In this document: positions 24,014 through 29,268 of the stretch, in pieces | Layout of the letters: each line of letters opens with the position of its first letter | How positions within the stretch are numbered: the stretch's first letter is position 1 | From: Thermoanaerobaculia bacterium | Lineage (GTDB): Bacteria > Acidobacteriota > Thermoanaerobaculia > Multivoradales > Multivoraceae | Direction: 5' to 3' | NCBI GenBank assembly: GCA_963666565.1 | Contig: OY762911.1 | Coordinates: 3,776,001-3,840,000 of the forward strand | DNA length: 64,000 bases | Program-made: the position numbers and the translations under genes | The notes under the pieces: model-generated | Told to the model about the DNA's origin: nothing | Database searches by the model: none | The model's input: only the letters and a program-made list of their open reading frames with translations

Positions 24014-24422
24014 GGAGGGCCGGGCGCGGCTGAAAGCCCCAAGTGCAAGAAACTGCTATCCTTGGCCGCGGCGGCGACGCTGGCCTTGATCGGCAGGCGA
24101 CCCGCAACTCGACAGCACGAGTCAGCGCTTGGCTTCAGCCTTACTCCTTCCGACAGTTCGTCCACTCCGAGGCGACGCGCGCGAGATTGCCCGCGTCGCC
24201 CGAGGGCCGCTGAACAGCCCGTGGTGAACCCAAGGCTATACCCGCCGCCTCCGACGACGACCCGGCTCGAGCGCCCGGTCGCGCAGTTCCATCTGCAGCG
24301 AACCCAGGCTCGCCGGCCCGCAGGCTCCCCCCGGGGAGTCGCGCCGCGCCTTGCCGCTCTTGCGGCCGGGGTCGTCCCCACCGATTCAACCGACGGCGCA
24401 GCCGCCGTCACCCGGAGACTTT

Positions 24423-26384
24423 GTGACCCGAAGAATGCTCATCAACGCGCGGAGTTCTACCGAACTCCGCATCGCCATCGCCAACGACCTCGTGCTCGAA
24501 GACCTGAAGGTCGACATCGCCGAGCGGGGGCTGACCCGCGGGAACATCTACTACGGCAAGATCGCGAACATTGAGCCGAGCCTGAACGCCGCGTTCATCG
24601 ACTACGGCGCGCCCAAGCACGGCTTCCTCGCCATCCAGGACGTTGTCCCGGACGCCTACTACCAGGCGGCCCCGAAGTCCAAGCGGCCGAAGATCGAGGA
24701 GGTCCTCGTTCGCGGCCGGCCCATCGTCGTGCAGGTGACCCGCGAGCCGGAGGGCGCCAAGGGCGCGGCGCTGACCACCAACCTCAGCCTGGCCGGGCGC
24801 TACCTCGTGCTCTCGCCGTTCGACAAGACGAGCGGCGTTTCCCGGAAGGTCGACACGGAGGACGTCCGCCTCAAGCTGAAGGCGATGGCGGAGTCGCTGC
24901 CCGTCCCCGACGGCGGCGGCGTAATCGTCCGCACGAACGCGCTGGGGCAAACCAAGACGGCCCTCAGCCGGGACATGAACGCGCTGCTGCGGCTGTGGAA
25001 GCGCATCTCCCGCGACGCGCGCGACTCGAAGGGAACCCGGCTCCTCTACAGCGACCAGGACATCGTCCTGCAGGGGCTGCGCGACTATCTCGACAGCTCG
25101 TTCCAGGAAGTCTGGGTCGACGAGGAAACCGCCTACGGGCGCGCCGAGCAGTACATGCGGGCCTTCATGCCGCGCAGCAAGACGGCCCTCCACCGCTACA
25201 CCGCCCGCAAGCCGCTGTTCTCGGTCTACGACCTCGAGCCCCAGATCCAGAACATCTTCGAGCGCCGCGCCGCGCTGCCCTCGGGCGGCTCCATCGTGAT
25301 CGACCCCACCGAGGCCCTGACGGCGATCGACGTGAACTCGGGGCGCTCGAAGCGGGGAGCGAGCCAGGAGGAGACCGCGGTCGGCACGAACGTCGAGGCC
25401 GCGGCGGAAGTCGGCCGGCAGCTCCGGCTGCGCGACATCGGCGGCCTGATCGTCGTCGACTTCATCGACATGCGCAGCCCCCGCAACCGGCGCAAGGTCG
25501 AGAAGGCGATGAAGGACGCGATGAAGCCGGACAAGGCCCGCTTCACGGTGAGCCGGATCAGCACCAACGGGCTGCTCGAAATCAACCGCCAGCGGATCCA
25601 CCAGGCCCTGCAGATGCGCACCCACGGCGACTGTCCGAGCTGCGGAGGCACCGGCCGCGTCGCCAGCCCGGACCTCATCGCGCTGCGCCTGCTCCGCAAC
25701 ATCGAGTCCCACGGCGCCGGCGGCTACATGCGGGGAGTGCGCATGGCGATGCAGCCGGAAATCGCCGACTTCCTCCAGAACCGTCACCGGGAGGCGCTGG
25801 TCAAGCTCGGGCAGGAGTTCGACCTCGAGATCGAGATCTCGGGACAGCCTCACCTTCACGGCCAGGAGCCGGAGATCAGTTGGATCGCCCGCGACCTGGC
25901 CGACGTCAAGAAGCGCGAGAAGGAAGAGGCGAAGGAGAAGAAGCTGGAGCAGGAGATGCTGGCCACTCCCTCGATCGGCGACACGGAAGAGGAAACGGAA
26001 GCCGAAGCCGCCGCGGCCGAAGAGGCCGCCCCGGAAGGAAAGCCGAAGAAGCGCCGGCGCCGGGGCGGACGGAGACGCCGTTCCGCGGCCGCGCGCAAGG
26101 CGAAGGCGAAGGCCAAGCCCAAGGAGGCGGCGTCCAGGGCGAAGCGCGCGGACGCCGGCGGCAACGGAGCGGGCGCCAAGGCGGACGGCGGCGGTACCGA
26201 GGCGATCAAGGTGCCCGGAATCGACTCCCCCGGCGCCGACGGGGGTGGCGAAGCCGGCGCGGCCAAGGCGGCGTCGAACGGCAAGGGCGCCGCGAAGCCG
26301 GCCAGGCGGCGACGGCGACGGCGGCGGCCGCGGCGGCCGAAGGCCGCGGAAGGCGGCAGCGAGCCACGGGCGGAGCCGGCCTGA
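24423..26384 (+). CDS. rne: Ribonuclease E/G family with charged disordered C-terminal tail
   Basis: S1 domain (GNIYYGKI..AAFIDYG), AIDVNSG, RLRDIGGLIVVDFIDM, Zn-link CPSCGGTG; Glu-rich and Arg-rich tail. Confidence 0.93.
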   Translation: MTRRMLINARSSTELRIAIANDLVLEDLKVDIAERGLTRGNIYYGKIANIEPSLNAAFIDYGAPKHGFLAIQDVVPDAYYQAAPKSKRPKIEEVLVRGRPIVVQVTREPEGAKGAALTTNLSLAGRYLVLSPFDKTSGVSRKVDTEDVRLKLKAMAESLPVPDGGGVIVRTNALGQTKTALSRDMNALLRLWKRISRDARDSKGTRLLYSDQDIVLQGLRDYLDSSFQEVWVDEETAYGRAEQYMRAFMPRSKTALHRYTARKPLFSVYDLEPQIQNIFERRAALPSGGSIVIDPTEALTAIDVNSGRSKRGASQEETAVGTNVEAAAEVGRQLRLRDIGGLIVVDFIDMRSPRNRRKVEKAMKDAMKPDKARFTVSRISTNGLLEINRQRIHQALQMRTHGDCPSCGGTGRVASPDLIALRLLRNIESHGAGGYMRGVRMAMQPEIADFLQNRHREALVKLGQEFDLEIEISGQPHLHGQEPEISWIARDLADVKKREKEEAKEKKLEQEMLATPSIGDTEEETEAEAAAAEEAAPEGKPKKRRRRGGRRRRSAAARKAKAKAKPKEAASRAKRADAGGNGAGAKADGGGTEAIKVPGIDSPGADGGGEAGAAKAASNGKGAAKPARRRRRRRRPRRPKAAEGGSEPRAEPA

Positions 26385-26402
26385 CGGCCGGCGCACACTC
26401 GT

Positions 26403-26443
26403 GGCCGCCTTCGGCGGCAGCGGGTCGGATGACCCGCGCACCC
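26403..26443 (-). repeat. REP-like double hairpin, family A
   Basis: Reverse complement reads gggtgcgcgggtc-atcc-gacccgc-tgccgccgaaggcggcc. Confidence 0.75.
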
Positions 26444-26493
26444 GGCGGCGCACAGGGCGGCGGTGACTCCCAAGCTGCTGAAAACAAGGGGGT

Positions 26494-26522
26494 TTGACAA
26501 TCCGCGTCGGGTTGAGCAGCAT
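26494..26522 (+). promoter_or_regulatory. sigma70-like promoter for the intergenic transcript
   Basis: TTGACA (26494-26499), 17 nt, CAGCAT (26517-26522); A-rich stretch (tgaaaacaa) upstream. Confidence 0.6.
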
Positions 26523-26648
26523 CGACGCCATGTCGTTCCGCGGCGTCACGAGGCGCAGCGGCGGTCCCGGGATCAATCGGGGCGATCCCGCGGCCGGGCG
26601 GGGTGGGACCCGCCGATCAGTGGATGAGCCCGGAAAGGAGGTGGTCTA

Positions 26649-26693
26649 GTGGAGTACTGCAGATGCGGCTTGATGGAGGTGGCGGCTCCCTAG
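26649..26693 (+). CDS. Putative 14-aa peptide MEYCRCGLMEVAAP
   Basis: GAAAGGAGGTG (26633-26643) 5 nt before GTG; TAG at 26691-26693. Confidence 0.45.
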   Translation: MEYCRCGLMEVAAP

Positions 26694-26839
26694 GAAACCC
26701 CTGCCAGGCGCAGGACATCTCCTCCGGGAAGCAATCCCGCGCCATCCCATCGGCCAAGAAACCCGCGAGGCGCGTACCGCGCCAAGCGCGACGGCACGCT
26801 CAGCCGAGCCGCGAAGACCGCGGTCCAGGAGCGTCGCCC

Positions 26840-26880
26840 GAGCCCCGAGGAGCGTCAGCCCCTCGGGGCTCTCCTTTCTC
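26840..26880 (+). terminator. Intrinsic terminator-like hairpin
   Basis: gagccccgagg pairs with cctcggggctc (11 bp), followed by pyrimidine tract tcctttctc. Confidence 0.65.
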
Positions 26881-27003
26881 GGGGCGCCCGCGCCGCCGGA
26901 CCGGGCCGCGACGCCCGCCCCTTCCCCTGGACGCCCGCTTCCGTAACAATCGCTCACTCGAACACCGGCCCCCGACCACCTTCCCTTCAGGCGGAGACAG
27001 CAG

Positions 27004-29268
27004 ATGACAGCGATCGGCACCCCCACCAAGCTCCTCGAGGGCGGCCCCAAGGTCAAGGGTTCGCTCCGGTACTGCGGCGACATCGACCGGCCCGGGCTCC
27101 TTCACGCCCGCCTCGTCACGAGTCCCCACGCTCACGCCAGGGTCCTGAACGTGGACACCGCCGCGGCCGAGGCCATGCCGGGGATCGCCGCCGTGATCAC
27201 CGCCGCCGACCTGCCGGACCTGCCGGCGAAGAACCGGCCGACCCTCCTTCTGGCCCGCGAGCGGGCGATCTTCGTCGGCCACCCGGTCGCCCTCGTTCTC
27301 GCCGAGAGCGAGTCGGCGGCCGCGGACGCCGCGGAGGCCGTCCTCGTCGACTACGAGCCGCTCGACGCCATCGTGACGATCGAGCAGGCGGAGGCCGCCG
27401 ACGCTCAGGCCGTCTGGCCGGACGGCCTTCCCGGCCAGTCCGAAGAGGCGGCCGCGCACGGCGCCGGCGACGTGTCGGAAGACGACGACGCGGCCTCCTC
27501 GTCGCCCAACGTGACGAACGCGATGCGCTTCGAGCGCGGCGACCTCGCCGCCGGCTTCGACGAGGCGGACGCGGTCGTCGAACGGGTGTTCCGCACGGCG
27601 TCCGTTCACCAGTCCTACATCGAGCCCCACGCCTCCCTGATCGACCCGGACCCGATGGGCGCCGGGATGACCGTGTACTGCTCGACTCAGGCGCCCTTCT
27701 TCGTTCGGGACGCGGTTGCGGGCATGGTCGGCCTGCCGCAGGACCGGGTCAAGGTCGTCGGCACGCCCGTCGGCGGCGGCTTCGGCGCCAAGTTCGTGCT
27801 GTACGAGCCACTCCTCGCGGTCGCCGCGGTGCGGCACCAGCGTCCCGTCCGCCTGGTGATGACCCGGACCGAGGAGATGCTGGCGGCGACGCCGGCCCCT
27901 TCCACCCGGATCACGATCCGGGCCGGAGCGAAGCGGAGCGGCGAACTCACCGCGCTCGAGGCGGAGCTGGCGATCGACTGCGGCTGCTTTCCGTCGTCGA
28001 TGACCGCTCTTGCCGGAACCCTGCTGGGAAGTTCGTACCAGACGCCCCACCAAGCCGTTGGCGGCTTCGAAGTCACGACGAACAAGCCGTCCGTCGGCGC
28101 CTACCGCGCGCCTCTGGCGCCCCAGGCGGCGTTCGTCGTCGAGACGGTCCTCGACCAGCTCGCTCTCGAACTCGAACTCGACCCGGTGGAGTTCCGGCTC
28201 CAGAACGCCTCGGAGAAGGGCGCCCCGATGGCGTCCGGAATGCCCTGGGCCGGGATGGGCCAGCGGCAGGTCCTGGAGGCGCTTCGCGATCACCCGGCCT
28301 GGAAGAACCGCGAGCGGGCCCGCGCCGAGGGACGGGGCGTCGGCATCGCGCTCGGCGCCTGGCCGGGCGGCACCGAGCCGGCCTCCGCCGCCTGCGCGCT
28401 GCAGACGGACGGCACGCTCAAGGTCCAGATCAGCACGGCCGACATCAACGGCACGAACACGAGCATGGCCCTGATGGCGGCCGAGGCGTTCGGGCTCGAC
28501 CCGGACAAGGTCACGATCGCGACGGGCGACACCTCGGCGGGGACGTACGCCGGCGCGTCGGGTGGCAGCAAGACGATCTACACGGTCGGCCCGCCCGTCA
28601 TCGAGGCTGCCCGCGAGGCGCGCCGCCAGACCCTGGAACTCGCGGCGCAGACGTTCGAGGCGGACCCCGAGGACCTCGAGATCGTCGACGGCGCCGTTCA
28701 GGTCAAGGGCTCGCCCGACAAGGCGATTCCGCTCAGGAAGATCGCCCAGCGGACGATGCGGTTCGGCGGCCGGCAGGCGCCGGTTTTCGGCCACGGCCGG
28801 CACGCCCAGACCAGCCAGGCGCCCGGATTCTGCGCCCAGCTCGCGGAGGTGAGCGTCGACCGGGAGACCGGAAAGGTCGACGTCGACCGGGTGGTCGTCA
28901 TCCAGGACTGCGGCAAGGCGATCAATCCGGCTGCGGTCGAGGGCCAGATGATGGGCGGCGCCCTGCAGGGCGTCGGCTGGGCGCTCTACGAGGAGATGGC
29001 CTACAGCGAGGACGGCCAGCTCCTGACGGCGACCCTGAACGACTATGCCCTGCCCGACTTCGCGCAGGGGCCGGCCGAGCTCGAGACCGTGCTGGTCGAG
29101 GTCGCCTCGGACCACGGGCCGTTCGGCGCCCGGGGCGTCGGCGAGCCGCCGGTCGTCCCCACCGCGGCCGCCATCGCCAACGCGATCGCCGACGCCTGCG
29201 GCGCGCGGCCGACGGAGTTGCCGATGACGCCGCCGAGGGTGCTCCAGGCGCTCGACGGGACCGCCTGA
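27004..29268 (+). CDS. Xanthine dehydrogenase / CoxL-like molybdopterin-binding large subunit
   Basis: SPHAHARV, HQSYIEPH, VGGGFGAK, GKAINP..VEGQMMGG, GARGVGEPP; active-site loop AYRAP. Confidence 0.92.
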   Translation: MTAIGTPTKLLEGGPKVKGSLRYCGDIDRPGLLHARLVTSPHAHARVLNVDTAAAEAMPGIAAVITAADLPDLPAKNRPTLLLARERAIFVGHPVALVLAESESAAADAAEAVLVDYEPLDAIVTIEQAEAADAQAVWPDGLPGQSEEAAAHGAGDVSEDDDAASSSPNVTNAMRFERGDLAAGFDEADAVVERVFRTASVHQSYIEPHASLIDPDPMGAGMTVYCSTQAPFFVRDAVAGMVGLPQDRVKVVGTPVGGGFGAKFVLYEPLLAVAAVRHQRPVRLVMTRTEEMLAATPAPSTRITIRAGAKRSGELTALEAELAIDCGCFPSSMTALAGTLLGSSYQTPHQAVGGFEVTTNKPSVGAYRAPLAPQAAFVVETVLDQLALELELDPVEFRLQNASEKGAPMASGMPWAGMGQRQVLEALRDHPAWKNRERARAEGRGVGIALGAWPGGTEPASAACALQTDGTLKVQISTADINGTNTSMALMAAEAFGLDPDKVTIATGDTSAGTYAGASGGSKTIYTVGPPVIEAAREARRQTLELAAQTFEADPEDLEIVDGAVQVKGSPDKAIPLRKIAQRTMRFGGRQAPVFGHGRHAQTSQAPGFCAQLAEVSVDRETGKVDVDRVVVIQDCGKAINPAAVEGQMMGGALQGVGWALYEEMAYSEDGQLLTATLNDYALPDFAQGPAELETVLVEVASDHGPFGARGVGEPPVVPTAAAIANAIADACGARPTELPMTPPRVLQALDGTA

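Follow-up and report, generated by a model that had tools for sequence, protein, structure and literature searches.

In the leader-peptide attenuators (trpL, pheL, hisL) a tiny open reading frame (ORF) encodes a peptide that is itself irrelevant, and the position of the ribosome decides which helices form; these attenuators act in cis on a conserved operon through a terminator/antiterminator and regulatory codons. The STAB-SD of the Bacillus thuringiensis cry3A messenger RNA (mRNA) is a start-less Shine-Dalgarno (SD) stabiliser with extended complementarity to the 3' tail of 16S ribosomal RNA (rRNA), and transfer-messenger RNA (tmRNA; RF00023) carries a mini-ORF whose stop codon lies in a hairpin loop. 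The dual-function small RNAs (sRNAs) SgrS/SgrT, Spot 42/SpfP, AzuCR and SR1/SR1P are described as independent transcripts with a translated small ORF (sORF), and in the account drawn on here a possible interference between translation and base pairing is discussed for Spot 42 and AzuCR (PMC12612679). In the passages cited, ribosomes at a strong SD and an interaction between the 5' and 3' untranslated regions (UTRs) of the Bacillus subtilis hbs mRNA govern RNase access (PMC5737220), and an anti-SD motif in the 3'-UTR of the Staphylococcus aureus icaR mRNA pairs with that mRNA's own SD (PMC3868564). Here we describe an RNA element with features of all of these, encoded on the plus strand at positions 26494–26879 of a 64,000-nucleotide (nt) stretch of the genome of a Thermoanaerobaculia bacterium (hereafter the window). 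It lies in a 619-nt gap between a gene for an RNase E/G homologue (24351–26384) and a gene for a molybdopterin hydroxylase (27004–29268), both assigned by Pfam.

We conclude that this segment almost certainly holds a real, new, stand-alone RNA family. An earlier inspection of the letters of the window (the sequence-only reading) had pointed to a promoter of the form TTGACA-17-CAGCAT, a terminator-like hairpin, an SD and a GTG-initiated ORF in the gap, all of which are present, and had proposed an undescribed sORF-containing RNA. That proposal holds, as the RNA has no Rfam match, is a stand-alone unit equipped with a promoter and a terminator, and is conserved well outside the genus. A match to a known family would have removed the novelty, and none was obtained: the Rfam 15 covariance models gave no match at the gathering score across the whole window, and at expectation values up to 10 they gave only three chance matches on 26300–27100, with 14.6–17.3 bits against cut-offs of 46–71. 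The minimum-free-energy fold of the RNA stretch has a z-score of -3.9, and none of 100 shuffled sequences folds as well. No description of the RNA was found in the full-text literature, motif lists in supplementary files being outside the reach of that search.

Two other identities were considered and set aside. The RNA resembles tmRNA in its similar size, its pseudoknots and its internal mini-ORF, but it has no tRNA-like domain and its ORF has an SD and a start codon; ARAGORN reports no genes in the window, and a tmRNA identity is rejected because a canonical tmRNA sits elsewhere in the same genome (an RF00023 match above cut-off at G000:C1:920861-921207, 130.3 bits). Longer ORFs that cross the region (134 amino acids on the plus strand and 145 on the minus strand) give no Pfam match, and these frames are broken by a 38-nt insertion and by large, varied differences in the length of the 3' domain.

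The RNA is widely distributed. A search for homologues, as the sequence-only reading had suggested, finds by BLAST the whole of the approximately 350 nt at 76–86% identity in all 24 genomes of the genus, and a core of about 100 nt in eight of 16 genomes from the order's other families. A strict pattern consisting of the SD (SD1), GTG, a gap and a second GGAGGTGGC was scanned over 401 genomes of the class and matches exactly once per genome in 91 of them, with no match for the reversed-pattern control; these matches are confined to the order of the window (90 of 131 genomes, its own genome excluded, and none of 269 genomes from other orders). With a covariance model built on the 5' domain and ORF (R1), a single full-length copy is found in each of 25 Acidobacteriota genomes out of 151 searched, and 23 of these 25 lie outside the class of the window. 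A pattern scan of 185,579 species genomes gives at least 120 stretches. Among the matches listed, about 77 carry Acidobacteriota labels (Thermoanaerobaculia, Vicinamibacterales, 'Marinacidobacterales' and 'Multivoradales'), nine are labelled Eisenbacteria, six Krumholzibacteriota, six Planctomycetota, two Latescibacterota, two Fibrobacteraceae and one Gemmatimonadota, 13 are unlabelled, and three to four are evident chance matches. R1 recognises 74 of the first 80 loci, 71 of them with at least 55 bits. The Eisenbacteria and Planctomycetota copies score just 22–35 bits with R1 and represent variant subfamilies, the former without the 5' domain and the latter with a different one, and both retain the core of SD1, ORF, second SD-like element (SD2) and stop. 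A multi-phylum RNA family is well supported by these distributions together with the comparisons that follow; the distribution itself did not figure in the sequence-only reading, and neither did the 5' domain with its pseudoknot or the constant distance from SD2 to the stop codon.

The ORF occupies positions 26649–26693, starts with GTG (26649–26651), encodes MEYCRCGLMEVAAP in 14 codons and ends with TAG (26691–26693), exactly as first described. Comparison of 126 unique variable regions shows no in-frame stops among 882 codons, as against 64 and 104 of 882 in the other two frames. In the sequences that we refer to as class I, the gap between GTG and the second GGAGGTGGC is 17, 20, 23 or 26 nt in 149 of 150 distinct sequences, the lone exception, with a gap of 38 nt, being a chance match (L137); in class II (Eisenbacteria and Planctomycetota) it is 18, 21, 24, 27 or 33 nt (15 sequences). 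Insertions and deletions in the ORF come in multiples of three, and its length is 12–15 codons across the family. The start is GUG in all ten loci found by the covariance model alone, whereas elsewhere GTG was imposed by the pattern.

The position of the stop codon is similarly constrained. SD2 (GGAGGUGGCG, 26675–26684) lies inside the ORF and is invariant in two family alignments, and in the window the stop begins 16 nt past its first base. Class I members use TAG (109), TAA (35) or TGA (10), all at the same place, which starts at +16 nt (144) or +19 nt (10) from the first base of SD2. Thirteen class II sequences have the stop at +15, and one Planctomycetota sequence, which uses the third frame, has it at +17; the other frames are mostly stop-free within 60 nt. 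The stop thus stands at one position of the RNA whatever the frame, and the ribosome would therefore be made to terminate at a single place. In one Planctomycetaceae metagenome-assembled genome (MAG) the usual stop at +15 is replaced by a sense codon and the frame runs on (locus L249, GCT AAA, compared with GCT TAA in its close relative L254); either the copy has decayed or the difference is an artefact of sequencing, the contig being of very low coverage.

The peptide, by comparison, drifts. The 169 distinct cores encode 127 distinct peptides, and among 82 distinct 14-residue peptides the only invariant residues are E10-V11-A12, which are invariant because they are encoded by the invariant RNA element GGAGGUGGCG; class II reads the same GGAGGUGGC as Gly-Gly-Gly. 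Because the frame stays open while the peptide drifts, and because the frame differs by class, the reading frame appears to be selected for the act of translation and not for the peptide. From this comparative signature we consider it quite probable that the frame is translated and that the peptide is a by-product. A suggestion that the product is a metal or redox peptide does not survive the comparison, since both cysteines are specific to the genus and the Cys-x-Cys motif is not kept outside it.

The peptide itself could instead be the effector, with a signalling, metal-binding or enzyme-modulating role for its 12–15 residues and the RNA structure tuning its synthesis. Such a micropeptide mRNA would account for an open frame with a strong SD and for the loose preferences that we see at several positions (D/E at 2, K at 5, H at 6, G at 7 in 67 of 82 peptides, and L/S at 8), but the codons of G7 and L8 lie on a strand that covaries with its pairing partner, the invariant E-V-A is dictated by the RNA element, and the class II peptides are unrelated; we regard this explanation as quite unlikely. 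The comparison with dual-function sRNAs divides in the same way. Like them, the element is transcribed on its own, as a small RNA with a dedicated promoter and terminator, and it has a small ORF, translated in those sRNAs and predicted to be so here from the comparative signature. In those sRNAs, going by the account cited above, the peptide is a conserved effector, whereas here no conserved functional peptide was found among the sequences compared: the peptide is unconserved apart from E-V-A, the frame differs by subfamily, and the ORF is at the same time one strand of a helix.

SD1 (GGAAAGGAGGUGGUCUAG, 26632–26649) can form 18 consecutive pairs, three of them G.U, with the genome's own 16S rRNA 3' end, CUGGAUCACCUCCUUUCU. 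It includes the 11-nt GAAAGGAGGTG (26633–26643) noted at the outset, which is followed after 5 nt by the GTG. The 16S tail is the same in four of five genomes where it could be read, and the fifth ends in UUUCA. Many other families carry a perfect 16-nt complement of the tail, and across the family SD1 complements 13–18 nt of it. At the positions of SD1 that the search pattern leaves free (1, 3, 4, 5 and 16), mismatches number 8, 16, 6, 1 and 0 in 133 distinct members, with frequent G.U pairs; complementarity is less strict at positions 2 and 17 (34 and 29 mismatches). Departures from the perfect complement are mostly transitions that yield G.U pairs.

These properties are also those expected of a decoy, in which SD1 holds small subunits, buffering the 30S pool or blocking RNases, and translation serves only to release the subunit. 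The long complementarity to the tail, maintained through changes that preserve G.U pairing, is consistent with such a role, as are the lack of a start codon behind SD2 and a high contig depth in one RNA library (see below). However, a decoy needs neither an open frame, nor a fixed distance between SD2 and the stop in three frames, nor a covarying helix; 11-nt SDs are common in these genomes, and the predicted pairing of SD1 with an internal mimic in the genus would be a poor design for a sponge. We therefore consider a 30S decoy or a ribosome-stabilised RNA to be rather unlikely. The STAB-SD comparison is a related one: SD2 has no start codon, and there is extended complementarity to the 16S tail, but SD1 has a GUG 5 nt past GGAGGUG and an open frame behind it, and SD2 is paired in the closed form and stands at a fixed distance from the stop.

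Pairing of SD1 with other parts of the RNA was a central element of the sequence-only reading, in which two partners were proposed. The region CCCGGAAAGGAGGTG (26629–26643) is indeed complementary to CATCTCCTCCGGG at 26716–26728, where the window carries an internal anti-SD mimic (CAUCUCCUCCGGG), but the pairing is kept only within the genus and through one-sided changes. The variants of 26716–26728 in genus relatives keep complementarity to SD1, and in folding predictions SD1 is largely paired in genus members (unpaired probability 0.0–0.45). A Planctomycetaceae variant has an internal GGAUCACCUC that pairs with its own SD1, and internal anti-SD mimics therefore recur in the family. The second proposed partner fares less well. 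Although GAAAGGAG and the CTCCTTTC of the terminator tail (26871–26878) are complementary, this pairing is unconserved in the alignments of relatives, and the sequestration of SD1 by the 3'-terminal CUCCUUUC that was built on it is not borne out. The principles seen in hbs and icaR, an SD of great strength and an anti-SD strand in the same molecule, are both present in this RNA. It differs from these mRNAs, which on the cited accounts encode ordinary proteins, in that it encodes only a drifting peptide of 12–15 residues, has two SD-like and several anti-SD-like elements, and has a conserved fold.

The 3' half was examined by realigning 78 sequences to a second model (R2); 82.2% of cells are paired in this alignment, compared with at most 56.8% when partners are slid, and 28 of 36 pairs show compensatory changes, although an alignment fitted to the model leans towards it. 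The raw MAFFT alignment gives 76.6% compared with at most 56.2%. The central feature is a long-range helix (P-LR) between GGCU.GAUGG.GGUGGCG at 26667–26684 and CGCCAUC.CCAUC.GGCC at 26740–26755. A second GGAGGTG within the ORF, at 26675–26681, had correctly been recognised from the sequence, but it does not behave as a second ribosome site in a looped-out ORF; its 3' part is instead engaged in this conserved helix with CGCCA(C/U)C. The inner helix, formed by GGUGGCG of SD2 and the downstream CGCCACC, is 98.4% paired, and all changes in it are wobble changes. The outer helix, which involves the two or three codons before SD2, is 76.2% paired with compensatory changes in six of six pairs, taking forms such as GGUUUG/CAAACC, GGAUUUG/CAGAUCC, UGUCCG/CGGACA and CUGCG/CGCAG. 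Cognate strands form more stable duplexes than non-cognate ones (-10.18 and -8.54 kcal/mol; 0 of 2000 permutations), and the variant subfamilies keep P-LR through compensatory versions of their own. For the genus of the window we infer P-LR by homology.

A second long-range contact (PK2) is probably formed by the P4 loop GUGGGA (26603–26608) and a hexamer just 5' of CGCCACC (UCCCGC, 26735–26740, in the window). Loop and partner change together (UUGGGU/ACCCAA, GUGGGG/CCCCAC, GUGGGA/UCCCAC, UAGGG/CCCUA), and the mean longest helix is 4.56, compared with 4.16 when partners are shuffled (0 of 5000 reach this value). The stop codon occupies the loop of a small hairpin; the stem covaries, but its register shifts by one base. 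A resemblance of this hairpin to 16S helix 45 was also considered; locus L022 is alike but other families are not, and we judged the mimicry to be due to chance.

The 5' domain, the pseudoknot and the long-range helix are all supported by compensatory changes. We counted the 5' domain on an alignment of 40 sequences (A1), in which MAFFT misaligned the genus rows of P3. For P2, P3, P4 and a pseudoknot (PK1), 83.8% of cells are paired, compared with 29–57% (maximum 56.6%) when partners are slid, and 19 of 25 pairs are compensatory, values that none of 500 shuffles reaches. P1 (CCGC, 26538–26541, with GCGG, 26558–26561, and a variable hairpin inside) takes the covarying forms CCGCG/CGCGG, CCACC/GGUGG, CCACG/CGUGG and CCGCA/UGCGG, as judged by eye and with no formal count. 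P2 (GGUCCC, 26563–26568, with GCGGCC, 26590–26595) is 88.7% paired with six of six pairs compensatory; P3, inside P2 (GGGAUC, 26569–26574, with GAUCCC, 26584–26589, and a loop at 26575–26583), is 62% paired with five of six; and the P4 hairpin (GGCGGG/CCCGCC, 26597–26614) is 97.5% paired with four of six. PK1 joins UCGGG of the P3 loop (26577–26581) to CCCGG (26629–26633) in the heptamer directly 5' of the SD and is 85.7% paired with four compensatory pairs; columns 30 and 89 are UA in 18 sequences and CG in 10, and columns 32 and 86 are GC in 36 and AU in 4.

This domain spans about 85 nt and contains four helices with conserved nucleotides in junctions and loops, and its covarying pseudoknot reaches up to the SD; it could be an aptamer for a ligand or a protein that decides whether the sORF is translated, as in a trans-acting counterpart of a riboswitch. 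Also in keeping with such gating, CCCGG has two possible partners in the genus, the P3 loop and the anti-SD mimic. However, no riboswitch family in Rfam matches, no conserved neighbour hints at a ligand, and the core is kept in Eisenbacteria, which lack the domain, and in Planctomycetota, which have a different one. We think it unlikely that gating by a ligand or protein is the function of the RNA, although such an input stage may coexist with a switch operated by the ribosome.

Of the roles that the sequence-only reading had offered, that of a ribosome-binding or leader-peptide-like switch gives the best fit. We propose that the RNA is probably an abundant, compactly folded small RNA, made from an independent gene, for which the ribosome is the operator; the more specific proposal, that the ribosome binds, translates and thereby unzips the RNA, has in our view about an even chance of being correct. 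A 30S subunit would capture SD1, in competition with the internal mimic at 26716–26728 in the genus of the window. A ribosome moving along the mini-ORF would have to melt P-LR, and probably PK2 with it, and would terminate where the anti-SD can re-pair with the second SD-like GGAGGUGG 7–8 nt before the P-site codon, which is the geometry of initiation. If the ribosome unzips P-LR by translating, the RNA would switch between two states, one closed and one opened by the ribosome, and the second would expose C-rich, anti-SD-like strands (CCUCC and CGCCACC) and adjacent single strands. Once free, these could bind the SDs of other RNAs, make RNase sites accessible or cause the RNA to refold. When a ribosome footprint at the stop is imposed in single-sequence folding, which is noisy, the freed CGCCACC often shifts to a GUGGCG about 80 nt after SD1, although inconsistently. 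The most likely purpose of such a device would be a readout of free-ribosome or translation capacity, which would be signalled by the exposed strands, by RNA pairing or by the stability of the RNA itself. That the family as a whole is a multi-phylum class of ribosome-operated devices, in which a 'test lap' on a peptide-irrelevant ORF, re-docking on the second SD and helix opening constitute the signal, is a tentative extension that we hold to be possible but doubtful. In a bolder version the RNA would serve new subunits as a checkpoint or guide for their 16S 3' tail.

The gene stands alone. The promoter occupies 26494–26522, with the -35 element TTGACA at 26494–26499, a 17-nt spacer and the -10 element CAGCAT at 26517–26522, from which we place the transcript start at about 26529; the predicted transcript of about 350 nt extends to the terminator tail at 26879. 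All 58 distinct homologues have TTGAC at 133–178 nt before SD1, and the -35 element is invariant in the homologue alignments. A consensus promoter scan of 26000–27400 called no promoter on either strand, the minus strand not having been examined for a conserved promoter; the scan misses this one because CAGCAT agrees with TATAAT at only three of six positions, and the promoter call therefore rests on conservation and not on the scan. The intrinsic terminator (26840–26879), identified in a terminator scan, has a stem of GAGCCCCGAGG (26840–26850) and CCCCUCGGGGCUC (26859–26871) followed by a U-rich tail. A strong hairpin with a T-run lies 160–210 nt downstream in nearly all of the 58 distinct homologues, and in the 3'-half alignment the terminator helix is 99.6% paired with seven of seven pairs compensatory.

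No neighbouring gene is shared between families, the RNA itself being the only thing that clusters, and the largest cluster of neighbour genes covers 13 of 151 distinct loci. Six of ten downstream same-strand ORFs that were scanned give Pfam matches, to six unrelated families. The RNase E/G gene is adjacent in the genus and, among 39 non-genus loci, at one further locus (L106, of a distant family), where it lies downstream.

These comparisons bear on whether the RNA could act in cis as a leader-peptide attenuator of the gene that follows it, in the window the Mo-hydroxylase (molybdopterin hydroxylase) gene, or be the mRNA of a type I toxin. The Mo-hydroxylase gene is on the same strand and begins 125 nt after the terminator, and the way in which the ORF region and the 3' end pair is reminiscent of the fold-back of hok-type mRNAs. 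A peptide-irrelevant ORF is shared with the trpL-type attenuators, which are the closest described systems in their working, but the element is encoded in trans: the gene stands alone, its neighbours vary between families so that neighbour and Pfam comparisons reveal no conserved downstream operon, the terminator looks constitutive, and no codon bias or repeated codon class is seen in the sORFs. On inspection the freed 3' strand is not complementary to the 5' arm of the terminator, no formal search for alternative folds having been made. The sequence-only reading had already rejected a type I toxin, correctly, as the peptides are 12–15 residues long, polar or acidic and unconserved, and not of the hydrophobic, membrane-active type; no antisense RNA feature was seen, again with the minus strand not examined for a conserved promoter. 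Both an attenuator and a toxin mRNA are very improbable explanations.

Metatranscriptome contigs support the expression of the RNA but are not decisive. The core is present in runs of eight studies (sponge, coral and marine), and three of four runs examined contain short contigs of 196, 206 and 228 nt that span only positions 26558/26576 to 26755/26835. In run X11 the word depth of the RNA contig is 139.9, compared with 6.06 for a contig of the neighbouring gene. Stretches that lack contig cover carry no weight in this argument. The short contigs, together with the conservation of promoter and terminator, point to an independent transcript of the kind described for dual-function sRNAs. A different pattern is seen at 26372–26450, immediately after the RNase E/G stop codon, where many metatranscriptome contigs match for about 40–70 nt and then diverge on both sides; this has the appearance of a short repeat, or of a terminator hairpin that these sponge-associated genomes have in common.

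Several observations weigh against the reading of this RNA as a switch that is operated by the ribosome and shared by many phyla. No output of the switch was identified, and no neighbour is conserved among the loci compared. The case for translation of the sORF is a comparative one throughout. Most members were collected by a pattern that itself fixes GTG and both SD cores, so that independent invariance comes from the 25 covariance-model matches, ten loci of which were read, and the phylum labels are those of the submitters of the MAGs. The 11-mer GGATCACCTCC or its complement occurs 6–29 times per genome in five Acidobacteriota genomes (G543, G467, G538, G565 and G548), as against 0–1 times for the reversed control, and long SDs are therefore a habit of these organisms and not unique to this RNA. 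When 41 sequences are folded singly, the probability of P-LR exceeds 0.5 in only about half of them, and for the RNA of the window itself RNAfold does not predict the helix (probability 0.0). The effect for PK2 is modest though significant, and the UGGAU/GUCCA stem that would close the SD1 loop is paired in 83.5% of cells but without convincing covariation. The transcript ends are inferred from sequence, as contigs cannot prove either ends or levels, and run X3 contains a 536-nt contig that extends from 173 nt upstream of 26468 to 26861, which may stem from transcription continuing out of rne or from DNA carried into the library.

If the reading of a ribosome-operated switch is correct, many environmental bacteria, including Acidobacteriota and bacteria labelled Krumholzibacteriota, Latescibacterota, Eisenbacteria and Planctomycetota, would carry a single-copy RNA whose sole 'substrate' is the translating ribosome. 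Such an RNA would correspond to the leader-peptide switches but be encoded in trans, and it would be a candidate for sensing translation capacity in phyla for which there is almost no RNA biology. It would also be a clean natural case of a frame that is selected because it is translated and not because of what it encodes, which bears on the annotation of conserved small ORFs. Precise predictions follow from the architecture, the main features of which are the complement of the 16S tail, an SD2 spaced from the stop much as at initiation, internal mimics of the anti-SD and a pair of long-range contacts. In addition, it provides Rfam with a new and well-supported family.

The 3' domain varies in length. 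The window's genome, and none of the other genus members, has a 38-nt hairpin insertion at 26758–26795, which the short RNA contigs of runs X1 and X3 skip. An extra hairpin at 26796–26834 (ACGCUC...GAGCGU around CCGCG/CGCGG) is present in most genus members and absent from other families. About 46 nt of the genus-specific 3' extension (26778–26823) match G000:C1:618286-618331 at 80% identity, similar second matches occur in five relatives, and this may be a small repeated hairpin module. One genus member (L018, G023:C1) has an insertion of about 110 nt in the 3' domain with internal repeats (GGGTGGCGCGATC..., twice).

Two observations concern the surroundings of the RNA. The RNase E/G homologue (24351–26384) has a long, low-complexity C-terminal tail rich in Lys, Ala and Arg, with a run of Arg at its end just before the RNA gene. 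At three Eisenbacteria loci (L177, L190 and L253) the sequence ...CTTCGGGGCGGGGCG(C/A)AAGTCCCCACCGGCGGTA... is found about 130–190 nt downstream of the RNA, and it may resemble a flavin mononucleotide (FMN) riboswitch.

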